Sequence record: OR786310.1
Length of the DNA: 64,000 bases
Reading direction: 5' to 3' (one strand)
From: Escherichia phage ETEC-TG
Numbering within the stretch: position 1 is the stretch's first letter; the number at the start of each line of letters is the position of its first letter. The translations under genes were made by a program, and so were the position numbers. This document shows positions 22,666-34,424 of the stretch, in pieces. Below the pieces are notes generated by a model. It made no database searches. It was not told the origin of the DNA and saw nothing but the letters and a program-made list of their open reading frames with translations.

Positions 22666-22670
22666 GAAAA

Positions 22671-22694
22671 GGAGCCATTTGGCTCCTTTCTTTT
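22671..22694. terminator. Bidirectional terminator between convergent operons (GGAGCC-ATTT-GGCTCC flanked by A/T tracts)
   Basis: Perfect 6-bp stem with T-tract on plus strand and A-tract upstream; lies in 56-bp convergent gap. Confidence 0.65.
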
Positions 22695-22721: not shown

Positions 22722-23609
22722 TCAGAATGGAATATCATCATCGAAGTCCATTGGAGGTTCTTCTTGATTACTTGGAGTTGGTTCTGGTTGTGGTTCAGGT
22801 TTTTTAACTTCTTTCTTCTCTTCTTTCTTAGGTTGTTCTGCGGAACCACGAATGGCAGCAGCAACTTTATCAGACAAAGCTAGAACTTTACGAGCAGAGT
22901 CAATCAAATCTTCTACAGATACAGTCTTAATGGTATGGTCTTTACAAGCATTGAGGATAGCGTGACCAACAGATGCCCCAAGATCATAATCATTAATGTC
23001 AACGCCACGAGATTCAGCAATTTCCGATTTCAGCGTGACAGTTGCAGATTGAACAACCCCAGCGATATCGAAAGCATCACCTTTAACACCATTACGAATC
23101 AGTTCCAGTGCACCATTTACTGCGTGACCAGTTTCCAGACCTACAGTATCACGTTTTTTATAGGACTGCTTAGGAGCAGCATCGTTGGAACCTTTATTGC
23201 CAGAAGATTTGTTAGACTTCTGAACACCATCGGTAGACAATACTGTAATACGAGATTTTTTAGTATTGTAGTAAGTTTTACCGCCTTTATTATCAACGCG
23301 ATCAATATCAATACTTACTTCTACACCTTTTTCAATAGTGATCCAATTATCACCTTCTTTGACTTGCAGGTTTTCATAACCTTCTTTCAGTTCAATGTCA
23401 CCAAGAGAAATCCAAACACCTTTCTCATCTGGTTTAGCACCTTTCTCTTTCAGAACAAGAGAAGCTCGGTGAGTTGAAACAATCGTTTTTCCTTCCCAAT
23501 GAAAAGTTTTAGGTTCAGCGAATTTATCCAGTTTAACGTAGTCTACGATACCAGTTGCATAAGTTACGGTTTTGCCTTTACGATCAGTTTCAGTATTAAT
23601 TACGGACAT
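22722..23609 (-). CDS. Single-stranded DNA-binding protein (phage gp2.5-like) carrying host SSB C-terminal tip
   Basis: 295 aa; Lys-rich middle, Pro/Glu linker, C-terminal EPPMDFDDDIPF identical to the E. coli SSB acidic tip; GAGGAG RBS. Confidence 0.55.
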   Translation of the reverse strand: MSVINTETDRKGKTVTYATGIVDYVKLDKFAEPKTFHWEGKTIVSTHRASLVLKEKGAKPDEKGVWISLGDIELKEGYENLQVKEGDNWITIEKGVEVSIDIDRVDNKGGKTYYNTKKSRITVLSTDGVQKSNKSSGNKGSNDAAPKQSYKKRDTVGLETGHAVNGALELIRNGVKGDAFDIAGVVQSATVTLKSEIAESRGVDINDYDLGASVGHAILNACKDHTIKTVSVEDLIDSARKVLALSDKVAAAIRGSAEQPKKEEKKEVKKPEPQPEPTPSNQEEPPMDFDDDIPF

Positions 23610-23625
23610 TATTATCTCCTCTACA

Positions 23626-24018
23626 TTACATTAATTTTGCACAGAAAGAGCGGAGTCTTTCCATATCATCTTGCTCTAACAGGTATTTACCTTTACCTAT
23701 TCCAACTCCAATTTCACCATTAGGGAAATGAACTATTTGCACTGGAAAACCTCCGAGTTTAATTGTGGCAGCTTTGCCTTCTTCGTCTATAACGTTTCGG
23801 ATTGTATCTTGCAGTGAAATGAATTCTTTGTTTGTAACAGTGGTTTCAATTATTTCAGATGTTTCAACACGAGCAGTTAGCTTCTTGTTTCCACCTTGAA
23901 TAACCAAAATTTGAAAATAAAAAGAGTTGTCAAGACCTACAACATTTTTCTCAACTAGTGTCAAACTGGTATAGTTTCCATAAACAGTTTCAACAGCTAT
24001 CTTAGAACGTTCAGTCAT
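23626..24018 (-). CDS. Hypothetical protein
   Basis: 130 aa ORF, tightly spaced in operon. Confidence 0.45.
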   Translation of the reverse strand: MTERSKIAVETVYGNYTSLTLVEKNVVGLDNSFYFQILVIQGGNKKLTARVETSEIIETTVTNKEFISLQDTIRNVIDEEGKAATIKLGGFPVQIVHFPNGEIGVGIGKGKYLLEQDDMERLRSFCAKLM

Positions 24019-24063
24019 TGAATGCTATCCTATCATAAAATGTTTAATATTGTCAAGCTTTAA

Positions 24064-24657
24064 TTACCAAGGAATATCCTCTTCTTCCAATCTGGTATCT
24101 ACTTGAGGTGGACGTGGAACCTTAACCTCTTTCACAAAACGAAGATATGGGAAACGTGTAGCAATTTTAATAACGTGTTTGGCATCTTCTCTAACGTCTT
24201 TGTGCAAGAAGCAGATCCCTGTTTCCAAGGTTGTTTCAAAATCTTTAGAATAATAACAATCCTTCCCATCAAATGCAGCCTGGCAGATGGACAGATCGAA
24301 CTCATTTAGAAAGGTTGTCATTACGCTTGGTTCCATAATCATAAGGTTGCAAAGCTGACCATCACGTTCAAACTCAAAAACGTGTTTAAGACCAGTAACA
24401 CCTTCATAATTGTCAGAAGCCTCTTTGTTTCCTAGTTTACGAATATTGGTTCCCATTAAAGCAGATGCAATTAATCCTTGTATTTGTTCTTCAGTCCGAT
24501 GTGCAGGAAGGGATGTATAGAAATCAAGATCACGTCCAGCAATATCAAGAATACGCCAATCACGAACAGCACCGCCAGCCAAGACAGAATTAGGATCAGC
24601 GATCTTTAATACGGTAAGAATTTCTTTGGCAATATTGATTTGTTTTGATTTAGTCAT
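24064..24657 (-). CDS. Minimal nucleotidyltransferase (Pol-beta superfamily, CCA-adding/poly(A) polymerase head-like)
   Basis: 197 aa; motif LAGGAVRDWRILDIAGRDLDF matches GGxVRD...DxD of tRNA nucleotidyltransferase heads; C-terminal EEEDIPW. Confidence 0.5.
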   Translation of the reverse strand: MTKSKQINIAKEILTVLKIADPNSVLAGGAVRDWRILDIAGRDLDFYTSLPAHRTEEQIQGLIASALMGTNIRKLGNKEASDNYEGVTGLKHVFEFERDGQLCNLMIMEPSVMTTFLNEFDLSICQAAFDGKDCYYSKDFETTLETGICFLHKDVREDAKHVIKIATRFPYLRFVKEVKVPRPPQVDTRLEEEDIPW

Positions 24658-24868
24658 TGATACGCTCCACAGTTACTTTTACAACATCATCCATATTAAT
24701 CTCATCCCCCAAGACCTCAATAACACCTTCCTCATAAAGTCGAGCACATTCTTCCCACACTTCAGCTTCCGTCATTCCACCTGCAATCTTATTTGCAAGA
24801 CCTTTAATAACATCTTCATTTTGTTCATCAACAAGAATTGAAACATTAAAGCTCACTAATTTACGCAT
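24650..24868 (-). CDS. Hypothetical protein
   Basis: 72 aa; AAGGAG RBS; overlaps downstream start. Confidence 0.4.
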   Translation of the reverse strand: MRKLVSFNVSILVDEQNEDVIKGLANKIAGGMTEAEVWEECARLYEEGVIEVLGDEINMDDVVKVTVERIND

Positions 24869-29196: not shown

Positions 29197-29212
29197 AAGG
29201 GCCGAAGCCCTT
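29197..29212 (-). terminator. Stem-loop/terminator with UUCG tetraloop after primase-helicase stop
   Basis: AAGGGC-CGAA-GCCCTT followed on the minus strand by U/A-rich tract. Confidence 0.45.
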
Positions 29213-30989
29213 AATAGTTGCTATCCGTAGGCAAATTAGCAGGATTGTTGAAATACTGCTCTTTGTCATGCAGAGTTGCAGTTCTAATGTCATAGTAAAA
29301 CTGCCCTGCCGGACCAGTTTCCGAGAACTCACGGTTTTTTAGGATAAAGCAATGAGTCGTATTGCGTTCTACAGGGTCTTCAGCGGCTTTATCTCGTTCC
29401 AAAGCCAAGGTAATACCAGCGCCTTTAGCCAAGAAACTACTACCCATTGCATCGTCCTCTGTTAAGTGTTCATTGCCACCATTAGCCGATTTCTTAACGT
29501 GTGAGATGACGATAATAGTTATAGCGTACTCTTTCATGATGCGCTTCAACCATGTTGCTAACTCTTCCTGGGCTTGAACATCCATACCAGAAAGCAAATC
29601 AGAATAAGGGTCGATAACAAGAATTGTTACTCCAAAATAGATGATCATCTCCAAAACTTTTTCTTTGATAGACTCCACATCTGCTCCACGATCATCACAC
29701 ACATAAAAACGTGGTGATCCATCTTCTCTTTCGTAAAAATCTAGGATTTTTTCTTTATTCTCTTCCAAGATTTGAAATTTCTCTTCCGGTGTTTTCCTGT
29801 GTAGAGGAATATGCAGGAACGAGGACAACAGGTTACGAGAATATTTCTTATAAGTTGCTTCCAAGGACAGAATACCCAAGGTATGTTCTGGGTGAGCAAC
29901 AATAATATGTTTGGTGATCTCGTTCACCATCAAAGTTTTACCGATACTGGTCTTTGCCAGGATCACTGTAATCTCTTCCTCTACTAAACCACCACCCAGC
30001 ATATTTGCAGCAACACGCATAAAAGGAGGCAAGGTAATCATCTTGGATTCCAAGCATTCTAATGCAGCTTCATACAAGACATTAGAAGCATAAACACCTG
30101 CTGGGGTGTATAGACGAGCACTCCAAAAAGCTTTTACGAAATCTTTTGCACGACCTTCTTCCAGATACTGATTGGCATCCTTAAGATCCATCTGCATACG
30201 GTAGACTTTGTTACGGGGCAGCACCTTAACAATATTTTCAAATGCCTCATTACCTGCTTTGTCATTATCCATGCAAACAATAATCTTCTTAAATTTTTCA
30301 AAGAAAGGATATTGTGCCTGAACTTGTTTATACATACTGGTTTCACCAGTTGTGCCACTAACTACTGCTGGAAGTTCATATTTGTTGTCCAAGTTTTCAG
30401 ACAACATTTGATAAGCTGCCAGAGCATCGTGTTCACCACCTGTAATTACCACAGTATGAGAACGGTCTGCAAAACGAATTTGTCCAAAAAGATCTACATC
30501 TTTACCTACTTGACCAATAGGTTTACTGAAATCTTTAGGATGAATACGACGCTTAAAACCAACCAATTCTTTACCGATGGTAGTCGGATATAAACAACTT
30601 TCTACTACCATCTGATCCCCTTCCTGACGGTATTCATAACGAACACCATAGAAAGATGAAACTTTTTCTTTAATGCCTCGATAACCACGTGGGTTGGTTG
30701 ATGTTTCTTGAACAATTTTACGATGAATCTGTTTATTAAATTCCGAACCCACAATCTCCTCCTCTTCTTCTAAAACTTCACCATTTTCTCGTAACCATTC
30801 TACGCTAGGAATAGTGTATTCACACGCAAAGCACTTAGCACCTTTATGCTCTCCATTAGAATCTAATCCATAAACCATCAGGTTATTACGAGAGCGATCC
30901 TTGCCATTTTTCATGCAGCGCGGACAACCTGTATGCCCTTCCTTGCTAAGATCAACATCAAATCCATATTTAGTTATAATGTGCGACAC
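29211..30989 (-). CDS. Bifunctional DNA primase/helicase (T7 gp4-like)
   Basis: 592 aa; N-terminal zinc finger (CPRC ... CFAC), TOPRIM-like middle, DnaB-type helicase with Walker A AKTSIGKT. Confidence 0.8.
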   Translation of the reverse strand: MSHIITKYGFDVDLSKEGHTGCPRCMKNGKDRSRNNLMVYGLDSNGEHKGAKCFACEYTIPSVEWLRENGEVLEEEEEIVGSEFNKQIHRKIVQETSTNPRGYRGIKEKVSSFYGVRYEYRQEGDQMVVESCLYPTTIGKELVGFKRRIHPKDFSKPIGQVGKDVDLFGQIRFADRSHTVVITGGEHDALAAYQMLSENLDNKYELPAVVSGTTGETSMYKQVQAQYPFFEKFKKIIVCMDNDKAGNEAFENIVKVLPRNKVYRMQMDLKDANQYLEEGRAKDFVKAFWSARLYTPAGVYASNVLYEAALECLESKMITLPPFMRVAANMLGGGLVEEEITVILAKTSIGKTLMVNEITKHIIVAHPEHTLGILSLEATYKKYSRNLLSSFLHIPLHRKTPEEKFQILEENKEKILDFYEREDGSPRFYVCDDRGADVESIKEKVLEMIIYFGVTILVIDPYSDLLSGMDVQAQEELATWLKRIMKEYAITIIVISHVKKSANGGNEHLTEDDAMGSSFLAKGAGITLALERDKAAEDPVERNTTHCFILKNREFSETGPAGQFYYDIRTATLHDKEQYFNNPANLPTDSNY

Positions 30990-31001: not shown

Positions 31002-31280
31002 TTAAAATGGTTCGTTAGTCTCCATCATATATTCTGCTTCTAGTTCTTCCATATGCTTTCTAAATTGGAAAGCAATTTCTGCTACAGTTACATTTAAATC
31101 TTTTTCAAAAACTTCTGTAGAGCCTTCATAAAAACGAATACCGTCAATTAAAAGCCCTCCGTGGTAATCCCAATCACTTTCACGAGAAAGCGGGTTAGGC
31201 TCTTCATAATAGTAATCCACCTCCACAACTAAGGCTTTCCCGTTACAAGTGGTGTATTCAAAATCAAAAGTGTTAATCAT
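31002..31280 (-). CDS. Hypothetical protein
   Basis: 92 aa, acidic; ATGA overlap with upstream gene. Confidence 0.4.
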   Translation of the reverse strand: MINTFDFEYTTCNGKALVVEVDYYYEEPNPLSRESDWDYHGGLLIDGIRFYEGSTEVFEKDLNVTVAEIAFQFRKHMEELEAEYMMETNEPF

Positions 31281-32224
31281 TATAGCTCCTCAAATAAAAG
31301 TCTACGACGCTCATTCAACACATCAATGTGATAATGAGTCCTGACATACTTAGCTAATGCTAATCCTTTCTCCATGCAAACATCGGGAGCACTTAATAAG
31401 TATTCCGTAATATCTTTCCACTCGGAAGGTGTTTCAGCAAAGAATAACAAATCTTTAAACTCTTGCGTATGATAATTCTCACGAGGAGAACAGATCAAAG
31501 GTAAACCCTTAGCACCTGCCTCAAGAATTTTAAGATTGCTTTTTGCATTATTAAACACGTTATCAATCAATGGCGCAAGACTGATTTGATGACCATCGTA
31601 AGATTCCATGTAGTTGGCATATGGTCTTACACCTTCATAAACACAAGTTGGTGCTACATTTTCTCTGATTACAGACCATTCACGACTACTTAAAACTTCA
31701 GAATCCCTACGAAAACCACATATTGTAAGATCTTTACCAAAATCGGGCAAGATAGCCAAGTCTTGTTTATGTGTTTCACTTCCAGCCCAGACTAATGGAG
31801 TTTTGGAGTAGCGATCACGGGTCAACACAAATTGACCTTCATCGTAAGGAAGTCCATTAGGGATTATGTGCACATTATCATTGTATTGTGAAAGTTCAAC
31901 TTGCAAAGCAGGTGTCGTAGTTGTAACAAGATCGCTGTGCTCTAAAAACCATTTTAAATGTTCACGAATACCTGATTCAAAAATACCTTCTAACATGTGT
32001 CCTTTTGGAATAACTAAAGAGTCATCCAAATCCATAACCATTTTAAAGCCTAGGTTTTTAAGGGCTAAAAAGCCCTGTTTACCTTTTGTTGGCACCCCGT
32101 TAAAAACGAAAACGTTGTGTTTAGGTTGTGAAGAGAACTGCCTTGAGTAAGGCAGCACTACCCTATGGAAATCGCAAACACTATAATTGATTCCGTTACG
32201 ATTGTCAAGAATTATTTGTCCCAT
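31280..32224 (-). CDS. Glycosyltransferase, GT-B fold (paralog 1)
   Basis: 314 aa; C-terminal KSNLKILEAGAKGLPLICS resembles GT1/GT4 nucleotide-sugar binding region; paralog of adjacent gene. Confidence 0.5.
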   Translation of the reverse strand: MGQIILDNRNGINYSVCDFHRVVLPYSRQFSSQPKHNVFVFNGVPTKGKQGFLALKNLGFKMVMDLDDSLVIPKGHMLEGIFESGIREHLKWFLEHSDLVTTTTPALQVELSQYNDNVHIIPNGLPYDEGQFVLTRDRYSKTPLVWAGSETHKQDLAILPDFGKDLTICGFRRDSEVLSSREWSVIRENVAPTCVYEGVRPYANYMESYDGHQISLAPLIDNVFNNAKSNLKILEAGAKGLPLICSPRENYHTQEFKDLLFFAETPSEWKDITEYLLSAPDVCMEKGLALAKYVRTHYHIDVLNERRRLLFEEL

Positions 32225-32231
32225 ACTTCAC

Positions 32232-33179
32232 CTACAAACTTTCAATAACCTGGCGTCGCAACTCATTTGCATCTGCCAGATTATAATGTGTTCGAACATG
32301 TTCAGCCAAGAACAAGCCACGATCTTCCCGATAGTTTGGATTGCGAAGAAGCTTAACAATTTCGTAATGCCATTCTGCTTTGTTCTCTGCGTAAGCAACA
32401 GCACGAGCATCTACAGGGTTAAAATAAGGTAATACTTTAGAACAAACAATCGGAATACCTTTTGCTCCAGCTTCCAGGATTTTGAGATTACTTTTACAAT
32501 TATTAAAATCATTATCTACCAAAGGAGCTATAGCAATAGCATGACTTTCGTAAACACTCATGTAATTATCTAAATCTTTTACAGCGGCTTTATATTTGGC
32601 ATTTGGTAAATTTCTGCGAATCTTAATCCATTCTTGTCCCGTGATGCTCTGTGATGCTTCATATCCCGCAATAGTAAGAAGTTCATCATCGAAAGTATTA
32701 GAGACTAGTCGTAAATCTGGTTCGTGACTAGCACCGCCAGCCCATACAACAGGGGTACCGGATGAACGATCATTTGACAAAGTGAATTGTCCACTATCAA
32801 AAGGAAGTGCATTTCGGATCACAACAACATTCCTATTTAAGTGACGGATCTTATATGCCAAATATTCTGTAGTCACAATAACCACATCAGCAAGCTTAAC
32901 CATAGCTACAATAGCATGAGTGTTTGACTCGTATAGATTTGCTAAATAATGTTCTGGATTAAGTTGGTAGAAATCATCTAAATCTACAACAATCTTAACA
33001 CCTTGACGTTTCAAAGATAAAACGTATTCTGCACCTTTAGAGTGGATACGGTTAAACACAACAACATCTTTCTTAGGTTGAAGATTATGGTTGTTAAATG
33101 GCATAACAATACGATGATAGTCACAACCGCTGTGAGGTTTTGCATCAATTTTTAGTTTAGACCATTTTTTATTTGACAT
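32232..33179 (-). CDS. Glycosyltransferase, GT-B fold (paralog 2)
   Basis: 315 aa; KSNLKILEAGAKGIPIVCS; collinear similarity to 31280-32224 product. Confidence 0.5.
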   Translation of the reverse strand: MSNKKWSKLKIDAKPHSGCDYHRIVMPFNNHNLQPKKDVVVFNRIHSKGAEYVLSLKRQGVKIVVDLDDFYQLNPEHYLANLYESNTHAIVAMVKLADVVIVTTEYLAYKIRHLNRNVVVIRNALPFDSGQFTLSNDRSSGTPVVWAGGASHEPDLRLVSNTFDDELLTIAGYEASQSITGQEWIKIRRNLPNAKYKAAVKDLDNYMSVYESHAIAIAPLVDNDFNNCKSNLKILEAGAKGIPIVCSKVLPYFNPVDARAVAYAENKAEWHYEIVKLLRNPNYREDRGLFLAEHVRTHYNLADANELRRQVIESL

Positions 33180-33852
33180 GTGCTAGTGCCTCCTCATAGG
33201 AAATTCGGATTTTCCCATTTTTAATATCCTCTAAAGATGCTTTATATTCTTCCCAGTTAATCCCGATAGCAGCTTCTTTCTCTTCTTTTGTCAGATTAGC
33301 AAAAGGCATAGGATTGTTTCCAAAAACATCGTCTGGGTGGATATAAGCCATGATACGAAGTGGACAAGGTGTTGCCTGAATACCATGATTCAAACCAGCA
33401 GCTTGTAAACGGTGTCCCCATTCAGCATCTTCAAAACCATAACCATGAGTGTAAGGACGGAAATAACCCATCTTCTCAACAACGGCACGAGAATACATTG
33501 CAAATTGACACATTGCAAGTTCCCAGAGAATAACTTCTCCTTTGCTTCCAACAACTTTATCTTTGAAGTACTCCGGCATACCAAAGAAATCCCATCCTCC
33601 AGAAACAGCTTGATCTACAAAGTATGTTTCCCATCCTTCCATGACTGGGTAGCAATCGTCGTCAAAAATAAACCAATAATCATAACCTTCTTCATAAAAC
33701 TGGTGCATAAGTTCATTCCTGGCATAAGCTACACCTTTACGATCTGGATCGTTGAATACTCGAAAATCTGCACGTGGATCTGTTACAAGGTAGTCTTTAA
33801 GTGGACGGACACCTACAGTGATAACACCCACTCCGATTTTAATATTTTCCAT
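33169..33852 (-). CDS. Glycosyltransferase, GT-A fold (DxD)
   Basis: 227 aa; FIFDDDCYP DxD-type motif; Rossmann-like N-terminus IGVGVITVG. Confidence 0.5.
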   Translation of the reverse strand: MENIKIGVGVITVGVRPLKDYLVTDPRADFRVFNDPDRKGVAYARNELMHQFYEEGYDYWFIFDDDCYPVMEGWETYFVDQAVSGGWDFFGMPEYFKDKVVGSKGEVILWELAMCQFAMYSRAVVEKMGYFRPYTHGYGFEDAEWGHRLQAAGLNHGIQATPCPLRIMAYIHPDDVFGNNPMPFANLTKEEKEAAIGINWEEYKASLEDIKNGKIRISYEEALAHVK

Positions 33853-33860
33853 TTTCTCTC

Positions 33861-34424
33861 CTAAATAGTTTTACTGTGATCGTGACAGTGTAATAAATGA
33901 TGTATAGACCGTTGAGGATTTGTTTGACCTAATCTGTAAATGTGAAACAGATACATTCCCCGCATCAATCCTAACCTCTTTCCTTTTTCATGTAAAGTGT
34001 GAGAGAAAATTAAGTCGAATTGGATAGATTTTTCTTCGAAAGGAATTTCATTCCACAATGATTTTCTAAAAAGCAAAAAGAAACCTGCCAGAGGTGTTCC
34101 GAAAGGAACTTCTTCAACACTCACTTTATGATATTCTCTTGCAATCTTAGCATATTCTATATGGTTTAGAATATCTGGATCATCGTTAATTTGGTTAGAG
34201 AAAAGCTGATAACCACTGCCTAACCTGTTACAAGTTGCACCTATTACATCAAAAGGCGGGTTTGACATAACAAGCTCTTCAAGCATAGATGGTTGATCAG
34301 GTAGGAGGAACATTGTATCGGTATCTCTTAAACACACCCAACTATCATCTGGAAGAACGGCAATGGCTTCATTGATAGCCTTGCCGATATTTCCTGTCAG
34401 ATAGGGAGTAATATAATAAATCAT
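33861..34424 (-). CDS. Putative glycosyltransferase-like protein
   Basis: 187 aa; CLRDTDTMF DxD-like motif; in glycosyltransferase cluster. Confidence 0.4.
   Translation of the reverse strand: MIYYITPYLTGNIGKAINEAIAVLPDDSWVCLRDTDTMFLLPDQPSMLEELVMSNPPFDVIGATCNRLGSGYQLFSNQINDDPDILNHIEYAKIAREYHKVSVEEVPFGTPLAGFFLLFRKSLWNEIPFEEKSIQFDLIFSHTLHEKGKRLGLMRGMYLFHIYRLGQTNPQRSIHHLLHCHDHSKTI

Follow-up and report, generated by a model that had tools for sequence, protein, structure and literature searches.

A nucleotidyltransferase with an SSB-like C-terminal tip and remote homology to Gad2 in the replication operon of Escherichia phage ETEC-TG

Escherichia phage ETEC-TG encodes, in the 64,000-nucleotide stretch of its DNA analyzed here (record OR786310.1; hereafter, the window), a small nucleotidyltransferase (NTase) of 197 amino acids (aa) that combines a catalytic head of the class II type with a disordered tail ending in a conserved, SSB-like tip. 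The nucleotide- and metal-binding residues of the head are invariant across a phage family of such proteins, the gene belongs to the replisome operon, and the family shows remote homology to the NTase domain of the anti-Gabija protein Gad2. The interpretation that we prefer, tentatively and with somewhat less than even confidence, is that the protein would be an active enzyme of the Gad2-like or class II-like type that docks through its tip and transfers nucleotides to 3'-OH ends at replication intermediates, in a protective or counter-defence role.

The open reading frame (ORF) occupies positions 24064-24657 of the minus strand, starts with ATG and encodes 197 aa plus a stop codon (MTKSKQ…LEEEDIPW); a plus-strand reading of the same segment is ruled out because that frame is riddled with stop codons. 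A GGAG Shine-Dalgarno sequence is located 9 nt 5' of the start, and the ATG overlaps the stop codon of the preceding 72-aa ORF, an arrangement consistent with translational coupling. This is no chance ORF: it matches phrog_10174, more than 60 phage genomes carry it at 95-100% identity, and its family counts 1,043 clusters with invariant residues. The deposited identical protein is WPK30744.1 ("nucleotidyltransferase [Escherichia phage ETEC-TG]"), and its cluster mates are labelled "putative tRNA nucleotidyl transferase / poly(A) polymerase", in a usage that traces to phAPEC8. Among the PHROG families, the protein matches phrog_10174 (E 6.5e-63, aa 1-128) and phrog_1614 (E 3.9e-11, aa 4-189), both labelled "nucleotidyltransferase". 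Because GenBank and PHROG annotations already name the activity, the enzyme class is not a new finding, and the description of the protein as head-only and CCA-like is likewise already there. What appears to be new is the failure of the protein to qualify as a canonical CCA-adding enzyme or poly(A) polymerase (PAP), the statistically supported relationship between its family and Gad2, and the presence, on an enzyme encoded in a replisome operon, of a conserved tail resembling the SSB tip. An earlier note on this DNA, made from the sequence alone, had described a 197-aa ORF at this place; the ORF is real, and its strand, which the note did not give, is minus. The note was right in most of what it saw in the sequence and missed both the existing GenBank annotation and the Gad2 NTase domain as the nearest relative.

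Catalytic core

The structural analysis relies on an AlphaFold2 (AF2) model built from an alignment of 129 sequences; a previous model from 12 sequences, with a predicted local distance difference test (pLDDT) score of 64, was set aside. The NTase has the class II head-domain fold, and the top matches in the structural search with this model were all tRNA CCA-adding or A-adding enzymes and poly(A) polymerase, with targets of 344-517 aa and template modelling (TM) scores, normalized to the target, of 0.24-0.31. The head-only architecture proposed in the earlier note holds insofar as the protein lacks the body and tail domains that bind tRNA; the core of about 176 aa consists of the class II head and a short neck-like segment. 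The Pol-beta/CCA-like catalytic motif that the note had recognized is present as well (LAGGAVRDWRILDIAGRDLDFY, aa 26-47), and its elements, G28-G29-A-V-R32-D33 and D43-L-D45, align to motif A of CCA enzymes, Cca and PcnB.

In alignments of 129-158 family members, G28, G29, D43 and D45 are invariant, so the catalytic aspartates stand up to the alignment that had been suggested as a check on the prediction. Nine further residues (Q6, A10, A27, A30, R32, D33, W34, Y84 and K164) are conserved in at least 89-90% of the same members. The most common form of the glycine-containing motif in the family is GGAPRDW, with GGAVRDW in the ETEC-TG clade. The position of E95 is occupied by E or D in 112 of 158 members and by N in 21. 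In the FDLSIC motif, conservation reaches 87% for F120, 75% for S123, 68% for I124 and 78% for C125, whereas conservation in the neck-like helix is confined to H161 (H or Y), K164 (97%) and F169-P170. The invariant GG and DxD residues, together with the conservation of R32, D33, W34, Y84 and K164 in at least 89% of the members, argue for retained catalysis in this family.

The SSB-like C-terminal tip

The NTase ends in ...TRLEEEDIPW, which agrees with the EEEDIPW terminus noticed previously. This terminus has the features that define a short linear motif of the SSB C-terminal (SSB-Ct) type: it is acidic, contains [IL]-P-aromatic at the extreme C-terminus, follows a disordered linker and is conserved. 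Among ten sequences of the clade, which share 35-97% overall identity, the last five residues show 88% mean pairwise identity with the consensus [DE]-D-I-P-W, and P and W are present in all ten; the preceding ten residues are 17% identical, and the linker varies in sequence and in length, and together with the tip it measures 16-23 aa. Disorder is predicted for the tail, where residues 191-194 have pLDDT values below 50. Thus, the conserved tip, the variable linker and the disorder of the segment are those of a short linear docking motif.

The resemblance to E. coli SSB is close. The SSB tip (DDDIPF) also consists of an acidic run followed by I-P-aromatic at the C-terminus (…DFDDDIPF) and is preceded by a disordered Pro-rich linker; the difference is that it ends in F and belongs to an ssDNA (single-stranded DNA)-binding protein, whereas the NTase tip ends in W and belongs to an enzyme. 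The T7 proteins gp2.5 and gp4 have acidic, aromatic-ended tails that dock on T7 DNA polymerase. As with the T7 tails and SSB, several proteins of one replication module carry such tails in ETEC-TG. Acidic-IP[FW] ends are found on two ORFs only in the 64-kb window, those of the NTase and of the SSB-like protein, whose last 11 aa (PPMDFDDDIPF) are identical to those of E. coli SSB. The DIPF tip of this protein had been correctly reported; it had also been taken for a direct neighbor of the NTase, and in this respect the description needs correction, as the SSB-like gene is located two genes downstream, with a 130-aa ORF between them. A literature search retrieved no paper on a DIPW tip, on an NTase with an SSB-like tail or on the function of the Phapecoctavirus NTase.

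Several other C-termini in these phages were noticed in the course of this analysis. The SSB-like protein (22722-23609) showed no SSB or OB-fold match in sequence searches of Pfam, PHROG and PDB, and its sole match to SSB consists of the last ~26 residues, including the 11 of 11 identical residues at the end. It may bind ssDNA through a novel fold, or it may be another kind of protein with a tip borrowed from the host SSB. A 95-aa ORF just upstream of the primase-helicase gene (phrog_4240, 31002-31289, minus strand) ends in …EYMMETNEPF (…ETNESF in relatives) and so provides a third tip-like C-terminus in the same operon. In other phages that encode members of the NTase family, phrog_862 proteins of 223-245 aa end in …GDDVPW, …DKDIPW and …GEDTPW (loci L033, 727-1416; L039, 3134-3805; L048, 7807-8544), and acidic tips ending in W are therefore also present on other replication-module proteins. 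Among the members of the NTase family itself, scattered tips include SSNDIPW, YPDDGIPF, EKPIPF, FSDDDF, PWDEEF and NNIPF.

A phage-restricted family linked to replication modules

An exhaustive profile search identified 1,043 representatives of 50%-identity clusters at E ≤ 1e-3, of which 333 were found at E ≤ 1e-10, nearly all of them 175-230 aa long; a word-indexed search recovered close relatives alone. A scan of 185,579 species genomes yielded 6 loci, all on contigs of metagenome-assembled genomes, compared with 85 loci in a scan of IMG/VR, and the family is essentially viral and restricted to phages. The cultured phages that encode it include Phapecoctavirus, Justusliebigvirus (including phi92), ICP1 and various Vibrio and Aeromonas phages. 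The ETEC-TG region itself is 98-99% identical to genomes of Phapecoctavirus (Stephanstirmvirinae), such as dw-ec, anhysbys and tuntematon. Family members extended at the N- or C-terminus were screened for domain fusions, and no Pfam domain was detected in them. The ICP1 member (ORF223; Vibrio phage ICP1_2004_A, L001, 3956-4375) is truncated to 137-139 aa, comprises the head alone and ends just past the FxxSxC motif; its gene is found among small early genes near the DNA ligase gene.

The genomic neighborhoods were counted in 51 non-redundant viral loci, after clustering of the NTases at 70% identity. Within four genes of the NTase, a family A DNA polymerase is encoded in 17 of the 51 loci and a primase-helicase in 16; HNH endonucleases (7), the SSB-like protein (5) and a FEN-type exonuclease (5) follow. 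No recurrent RNA-repair gene was observed near the NTase in these loci. The gene order is retained even in P0016, a relative with 35% identity, where primase-helicase and DNA polymerase are followed by the NTase, a 129-aa ORF and (the SSB-like gene). A scan of the NTase against PADLOC-DB gave no match to a defense-system family at E ≤ 10, and the possibility that it is a defense-system protein was dismissed on this ground.

Relationship to Gad2

Gad2 is the second anti-Gabija protein of SPbeta-like phages, a 400-aa protein for which AF2 predicts an NTase domain. Knockout of gad2 makes SPbetaL7 sensitive to Gabija, and a Brevibacillus homolog blocks Gabija; according to a review of February 2026, the mechanism of Gad2 is unknown, and Gabija responds to RecBCD inhibition and to DNA ends. 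We compared the NTase family with Gad2 sequences taken from the supplementary tables of the Gad2 paper. In hhalign, the family profile matched a profile of 37 Gad2 sequences at 96.4% (E 1.2e-9, 123 columns) and one Gad2 sequence at 94.3% (E 9.9e-8, 122 columns; query aa 10-152, Gad2 15-139). The same profile matched single sequences of LKD16 gp16 (phiKMV type), PcnB and Cca at 86.8%, 52.9% and 23%, respectively. The family hidden Markov model (HMM) detects 119 of 120 Gad2 proteins at E ≤ 1e-3 with 32-37 bits, the E-values being relative to this small set, and in the opposite direction a home-made HMM of the Gad2 N-terminal domain detects 46 of 158 family members at E ≤ 1e-3 within that small set. 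In precomputed Pfam tables, PF26128 (Gad2) is listed for the relative P0009, with no mark given, and as a faint hit for P0016. Judging from these profile comparisons, the nearest sequence relative of the NTase family is the Gad2 nucleotidyltransferase domain.

Like Gad2 of Bacillus phage SPbetaL7 and of a Brevibacillus laterosporus prophage, the ETEC-TG protein is a phage-encoded, class II-like Pol-beta NTase. The N-terminal ~140 aa of Gad2 and the NTase have in common a helix, AGG, a spacer of ~10 aa, DxDxY/F, VQxM/I, F-D-x-[ST]-[VI]-C and DF, and in both groups FD-x-[ST]-[VI]-C replaces the RRDFTIN of class II enzymes. The differences are also substantial. Gad2 has ~400 aa with a conserved C-terminal region (HNSQRILKFN…PIVSLLRVQKY…GGMYGINYDKLF…), whereas the NTase has 197 aa and the alignment stops at about position 141 of Gad2; Gad2 has GGxITS in place of GGA[PV]RDW; Gad2 is encoded in an anti-defense locus of SPbeta-like temperate phages and the NTase in a replisome operon; and the NTase has an SSB-like tip, which Gad2 lacks. 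On present sequence comparisons, we file the NTase as a sister family of the Gad2 NTase domain and not as a Gad2.

Distinction from enzymes that add CCA and from poly(A) polymerases

Membership in the curated CCA, PAP or PcnB families is ruled out, as every score falls below threshold. The search against the poly(A)-polymerase head family that the earlier note had recommended did not support the assignment: PF01743 (PolyA_pol) gives 13.8 bits, short of its gathering threshold of 23 (E 0.077, aa 26-65 only), and E ≤ 0.01 is attained by just 17 of 129 family members. For the NCBIfam models of CCA enzymes and PcnB (TIGR02692 and TIGR01942), the scores are about 12 bits against cut-offs of 290-440 (12.6 versus 438.8 for TIGR02692). 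Motif B (RRD), which reads the ribose and the triphosphate of the incoming nucleoside triphosphate (NTP), is absent, the NTase having N-E-F-D-L-S-I-C where Cca has KRRDLTIN and PcnB has QRRDFTIN; positions 118-119 are never a conserved Arg across the family. Motif D (EDxxR) is the amino-acid template that selects CTP and ATP. In the NTase, E157-D158-A-K-H161 (EDAKHVIKIATRF) aligns to EDPLR of Cca (EDPLRVLRVARF); positions 157 and 158 are unconserved family-wide. Since the close clade itself shows variation at E157, and conservation across the family is limited to H/Y161, K164 and F169-P170, the protein template for C-C-A does not appear to be preserved. Moreover, canonical class II enzymes, both the CCA- or A-adding ones and PcnB, have 390-470 aa with body and tail domains in addition to RRD and EDxxR, whereas the NTase, at ~200 aa, lacks the body and tail domains, RRD and a conserved EDxxR template, and its family differs from the class II enzymes in being confined to phages and tied to replication modules. 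The stand-alone "CCA-adding enzyme head domain" of Streptococcus pneumoniae (NP_344798.1; PDB 2la3) is bacterial, shows 13% identity to the NTase, has no SSB-like tip and shares no Pfam family with it. By these sequence measures, the NTase falls outside the canonical CCA-enzyme and PAP families.

The physiological context likewise speaks against a role on tRNA. No tRNA genes were found in the 64-kb window. The relative anhysbys (98.8% identical) has 10 tRNA genes, and as all of them encode CCA genomically, a need to build CCA on phage tRNAs can be dismissed; the host also has its own Cca. The RNA-ligase and phosphoesterase genes of the phage are located ~100 kb from the NTase gene. In anhysbys, these form a separate module of RNA ligase, phosphoesterase and RNA-ligase-like genes, and both the tRNAs and this module lie outside the window (L096, 775-2697, corresponding to 108.8-110.7 kb of anhysbys; L095, 36654-39011). 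The acidic isoelectric point (pI) of the core was initially considered as an argument against RNA binding and was dropped because the head of E. coli Cca is equally acidic (pI 5.4).

The alternative that best survives this comparison is that the NTase repairs tRNA 3' ends or tails RNA, adding C, C and A or only A to nuclease-damaged tRNAs or other RNAs, or polyadenylating them. The structural matches enumerated above fit such a role, as do the class II form of motif A (GGxVRD…DxD), the motif-D-like segment in the clade, the tRNA genes in relatives of the phage and the fact that all characterized class II enzymes act on RNA. The toxicity of overexpressed SPbetaL7 Gad2 and of Emajogi gp22, the latter at most a candidate homolog of the NTase, would also fit promiscuous modification of tRNA or RNA 3' ends. 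On the opposite side are the sub-threshold PolyA_pol and CCA model scores, the missing RRD motif and body and tail domains, the variation at E157/D158, the CCA-encoding tRNA genes together with the host Cca, the distance to the RNA-ligase module from an NTase gene that sits among SSB-like, DNA polymerase and primase-helicase genes, and the occurrence of homologs in phage genera without tRNA genes in the retrieved loci. The two roles suggested in the earlier note, tRNA 3'-end repair and RNA tailing, are accordingly not well supported; we regard this alternative as unlikely, with tRNA CCA repair in particular possible but disfavored.

Proposed function

The reading that we prefer starts from an NTase that would be template-independent, would consist of the class II head and a neck stub, and would be expressed from the replication operon. 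The nucleic-acid-anchoring body and tail are replaced in this protein by the disordered linker and the [DE]D-I-P-W tip. Through this tip, the NTase might dock in the pockets that accept SSB tips, either in the phage replisome and the SSB-like protein or in host SSB-interacting proteins that process forks and DNA ends, or both. The DxD site would there move nucleotides onto 3'-OH groups of DNA or RNA at replication intermediates, and this would serve, in a Gad2-like way, to shield or condition the replication of the phage when the host attacks it, and not to restore the CCA ends of tRNAs.

A number of observations weigh against this reading. Acidic-aromatic tips are found in 11 of 148 family members compared with 26 of 609 neighboring genes, a difference that is not significant (p = 0.13), and the neighbors in this comparison include tip-bearing SSB-like proteins and primase-helicases, some of them also ending in W (…DKDIPW, …DDVPW). 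Given the lack of significant enrichment relative to such neighbors, the tip is treated here as a clade-specific feature that is common among replication-module proteins, and it is best seen as a feature of the replication module that this NTase clade acquired and kept. Since most family members have no tip, tethering cannot be the mode of action of the entire family. The terminal residue is W instead of F, and a fit of such a tip into the known SSB-Ct pockets is putative. With respect to Gad2, the homology is remote (~17% identity), the NTase scores only 4.2 bits on the home-made HMM of the Gad2 N-terminal domain, and the conserved C-terminal ~260 residues of Gad2 are missing; on account of this remoteness, the missing region and the unknown mechanism of Gad2 itself, functional transfer from Gad2 is weak. 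Every characterized class II relative acts on RNA 3' ends, which favors an RNA substrate. Finally, the location in the replication operon may reflect just the timing of early or middle expression.

A more far-reaching version of this reading, which we consider improbable, is that the DIPW tip truly mimics the C-terminus of SSB and would bring a Gad2-type NTase to a host protein of forks, DNA ends or defense, or to SSB-coated phage intermediates. There, it would cap or extend DNA 3' ends, or nucleotidylate a client, such that immunity that senses DNA ends would be blinded. Candidate host targets in this case are a helicase-nuclease such as Gabija and SSB clients of the RecQ, ExoI or PriA type.

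Other small phage nucleotidyltransferases and remaining alternatives

Small NTases are found in the replication modules of several other phages. LKD16 gp16 (Pseudomonas phage) and PP47 gp28 (Pectobacterium phage), examples of the small Autographiviridae genes labelled "tRNA nucleotidyltransferase" or "nucleotidyltransferase", are head-only proteins of 170-200 aa that are encoded between helicase/primase and ligase/DNA polymerase genes. In LKD16, the gene is reported between the helicase and ligase genes; in Pectobacterium T7-like phages, between those for the helicase and DNA polymerase, where the authors call its role unknown. LKD16 gp16 is a remote homolog of the ETEC-TG family (E 4.3e-6 in the hhalign comparison given above), and other small phage NTases match by predicted fold alone (BFVD, E 1e-6 to 1e-9). 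In sequence, the small NTases of Autographiviridae form a family apart, with GGAARDLY, a class II-like FDYTLNQ in place of FDLSIC and no acidic-aromatic tip. In the Pseudomonas putida phage Emajogi, the NTase gp22 is listed beside the primase/helicase gp23, is toxic when strongly overexpressed and has homologs named Gad2 family.

Small stand-alone Pol-beta NTases of the MNT-like type, also encoded by phages, synthesize 3'3'-cGAMP and c-di-AMP that inhibit TIR-STING (Ho et al.). By analogy, the ETEC-TG NTase could make a small nucleotide that jams or pre-empts host defense, for example a di- or oligonucleotide, cyclic or linear, or a nucleotide analog. The lack of a nucleic-acid-binding domain fits a small-molecule acceptor, and the nearest relative, Gad2, is a reported anti-defense protein with a predicted NTase domain. 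The MNT-like precedent, however, is a different family: compared with the published motif description (GS-x-AY[GAN]T-x4-SDxD and NP-x-h2[DE]), the ETEC-TG protein has AGGAVRDW…RDLD and neither a GS nor an NP motif, so that membership in the MNT-like cyclic-dinucleotide NTases is ruled out. Such a product is a still slimmer prospect than SSB mimicry.

Modification of a protein is another, rather implausible possibility, namely, that the tip delivers the NTase to an SSB-tip-binding protein which is then AMPylated or otherwise NMPylated and thereby switched off or on. The classic partner-modifying enzyme combines a docking peptide with a minimal catalytic domain, Pol-beta-fold NTases that modify proteins exist (e.g., the MntA antitoxins that AMPylate HepT), and here, too, the missing nucleic-acid-binding module would fit. 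Least credible by far is a non-catalytic decoy in which the tip competes with host or phage SSB for partners and the NTase fold is a scaffold; no other part of the C-terminal third is as conserved as the tip, which closely copies that of SSB, but the GG and DxD residues and their conserved surroundings (R32, D33, W34, Y84 and K164), described above, and the lack of a tip in most family members speak strongly against it.

Operon and neighboring genes

The NTase gene is part of a single minus-strand operon in which the genes are arranged in the order primase-helicase, 143-aa ORF, N6-methyltransferase-like gene, DNA polymerase A, three small ORFs, NTase, 130-aa ORF and SSB-like gene (Table 1).

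Table 1. Features of the nucleotidyltransferase and of the surrounding operon in the ETEC-TG window.
Feature	Position	Strand	Comment
Nucleotidyltransferase gene	24064..24657	-	= WPK30744.1; phrog_10174, phrog_1614
Folded core, aa 1-176	24130..24657	-	class II-type head (five-stranded sheet and flanking helices) with a short neck-like helical segment
Motif A, aa 26-47, LAGGAVRDWRILDIAGRDLDFY	24517..24582	-	NTP-binding GG (G28, G29) and metal-binding D43, D45
E95, strand beta-4	24373..24375	-	candidate third metal-binding carboxylate, from its position in the sheet of the model
FDLSIC motif, aa 120-125	24283..24300	-	at the position of class II motif B (RRDFTIN); both arginines missing; FDFTVC in Gad2
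Neck-like helix, aa 157-170, EDAKHVIKIATRFP	24148..24189	-	resembles class II motif D (EDPLRVLRVARF)
Disordered Pro-rich linker, aa 177-192	24082..24129	-	pLDDT drops to 67, then 45
C-terminal tip EDIPW, aa 193-197	24067..24081	-	SSB-Ct-like short linear motif
130-aa protein (phrog_16560)	23626..24018	-	without Pfam or PDB match; offset +1 from the NTase in 4 loci
SSB-like protein, 295 aa (phrog_4477)	22722..23609	-	called SSB in some genomes
72-aa ORF (phrog_25475)	24650..24868	-	its stop codon overlaps the start of the NTase gene
Family A DNA polymerase, 865 aa	25286..27883	-	PF00476 E 1.4e-13; phrog_17 E 2.5e-111
Primase-helicase (Toprim and DnaB-like)	29211..30989	-	phrog_239 E 2.4e-164
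Bidirectional terminator-like hairpin	22667..22690	.	closes the minus-strand replication operon after the SSB-like gene

Homology searches with the 130-aa protein by sequence and against Pfam and PDB gave no match. In the clade, its gene is always located between the NTase and SSB-like genes, including in a relative whose NTase is 35% identical (L092, 8683-9072), and the protein is a candidate functional partner of the NTase. A near-consensus sigma-70-like promoter (24027-24056, minus strand; TTGACA, an 18-nt spacer and TG-TAGGAT) is located in the 45 nt that separate the NTase stop codon from the 130-aa ORF; overall, shuffled sequence yields at least as many promoter-like sites as this region does.

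Two further features of this part of the genome were noticed. The DNA polymerase A in the window contains no intein and reads …HYC|WRYEPEPHEYC…, whereas in relatives an intein-like insertion of ~235-245 aa is present at exactly this cysteine (L092, 4285-7584; L088, 3565-6897). The 1099-aa polymerase of L092 reads HYC, followed by the insertion (VPMDAQAL…ITITGN) and CWRYEAEPHDYC, and gp008 of anhysbys has 1110 aa; this insertion accounts for the split megablast alignments. Directly upstream of the replication genes and on the same strand, positions 31280-34424 encode four consecutive glycosyltransferases (two phrog_7162 paralogs, phrog_2456 and phrog_14179), the target of which could be either DNA or the cell envelope; anhysbys encodes enzymes of the dTDP-rhamnose pathway elsewhere in its genome.

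Implications

Head-only small NTases are widespread in phage replication modules, with 1,043 clusters in the family described here and sister families in Autographiviridae. Such proteins are routinely called "tRNA nucleotidyltransferase" without a test, and for the ETEC-TG family this label is poorly founded; the nearest relative is instead Gad2, a validated anti-Gabija factor. In an E. coli phage that can be grown on K-12, the tip peptide of the Phapecoctavirus proteins offers a concrete and testable way to the partner of the NTase and, through the partner, to the substrate of the enzyme. If docking through the tip proves false, the gene would be that of an ordinary accessory enzyme, as already annotated. 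If, conversely, the tip steers the NTase to the SSB interactome, the phage would have a new means of directing an enzyme to a hub of DNA metabolism, either that of the host or its own. And should the protein act as an SSB mimic in counter-defense, the tip would be a stolen hub-docking peptide and would provide the first mechanistic handle on Gad2-like enzymes.

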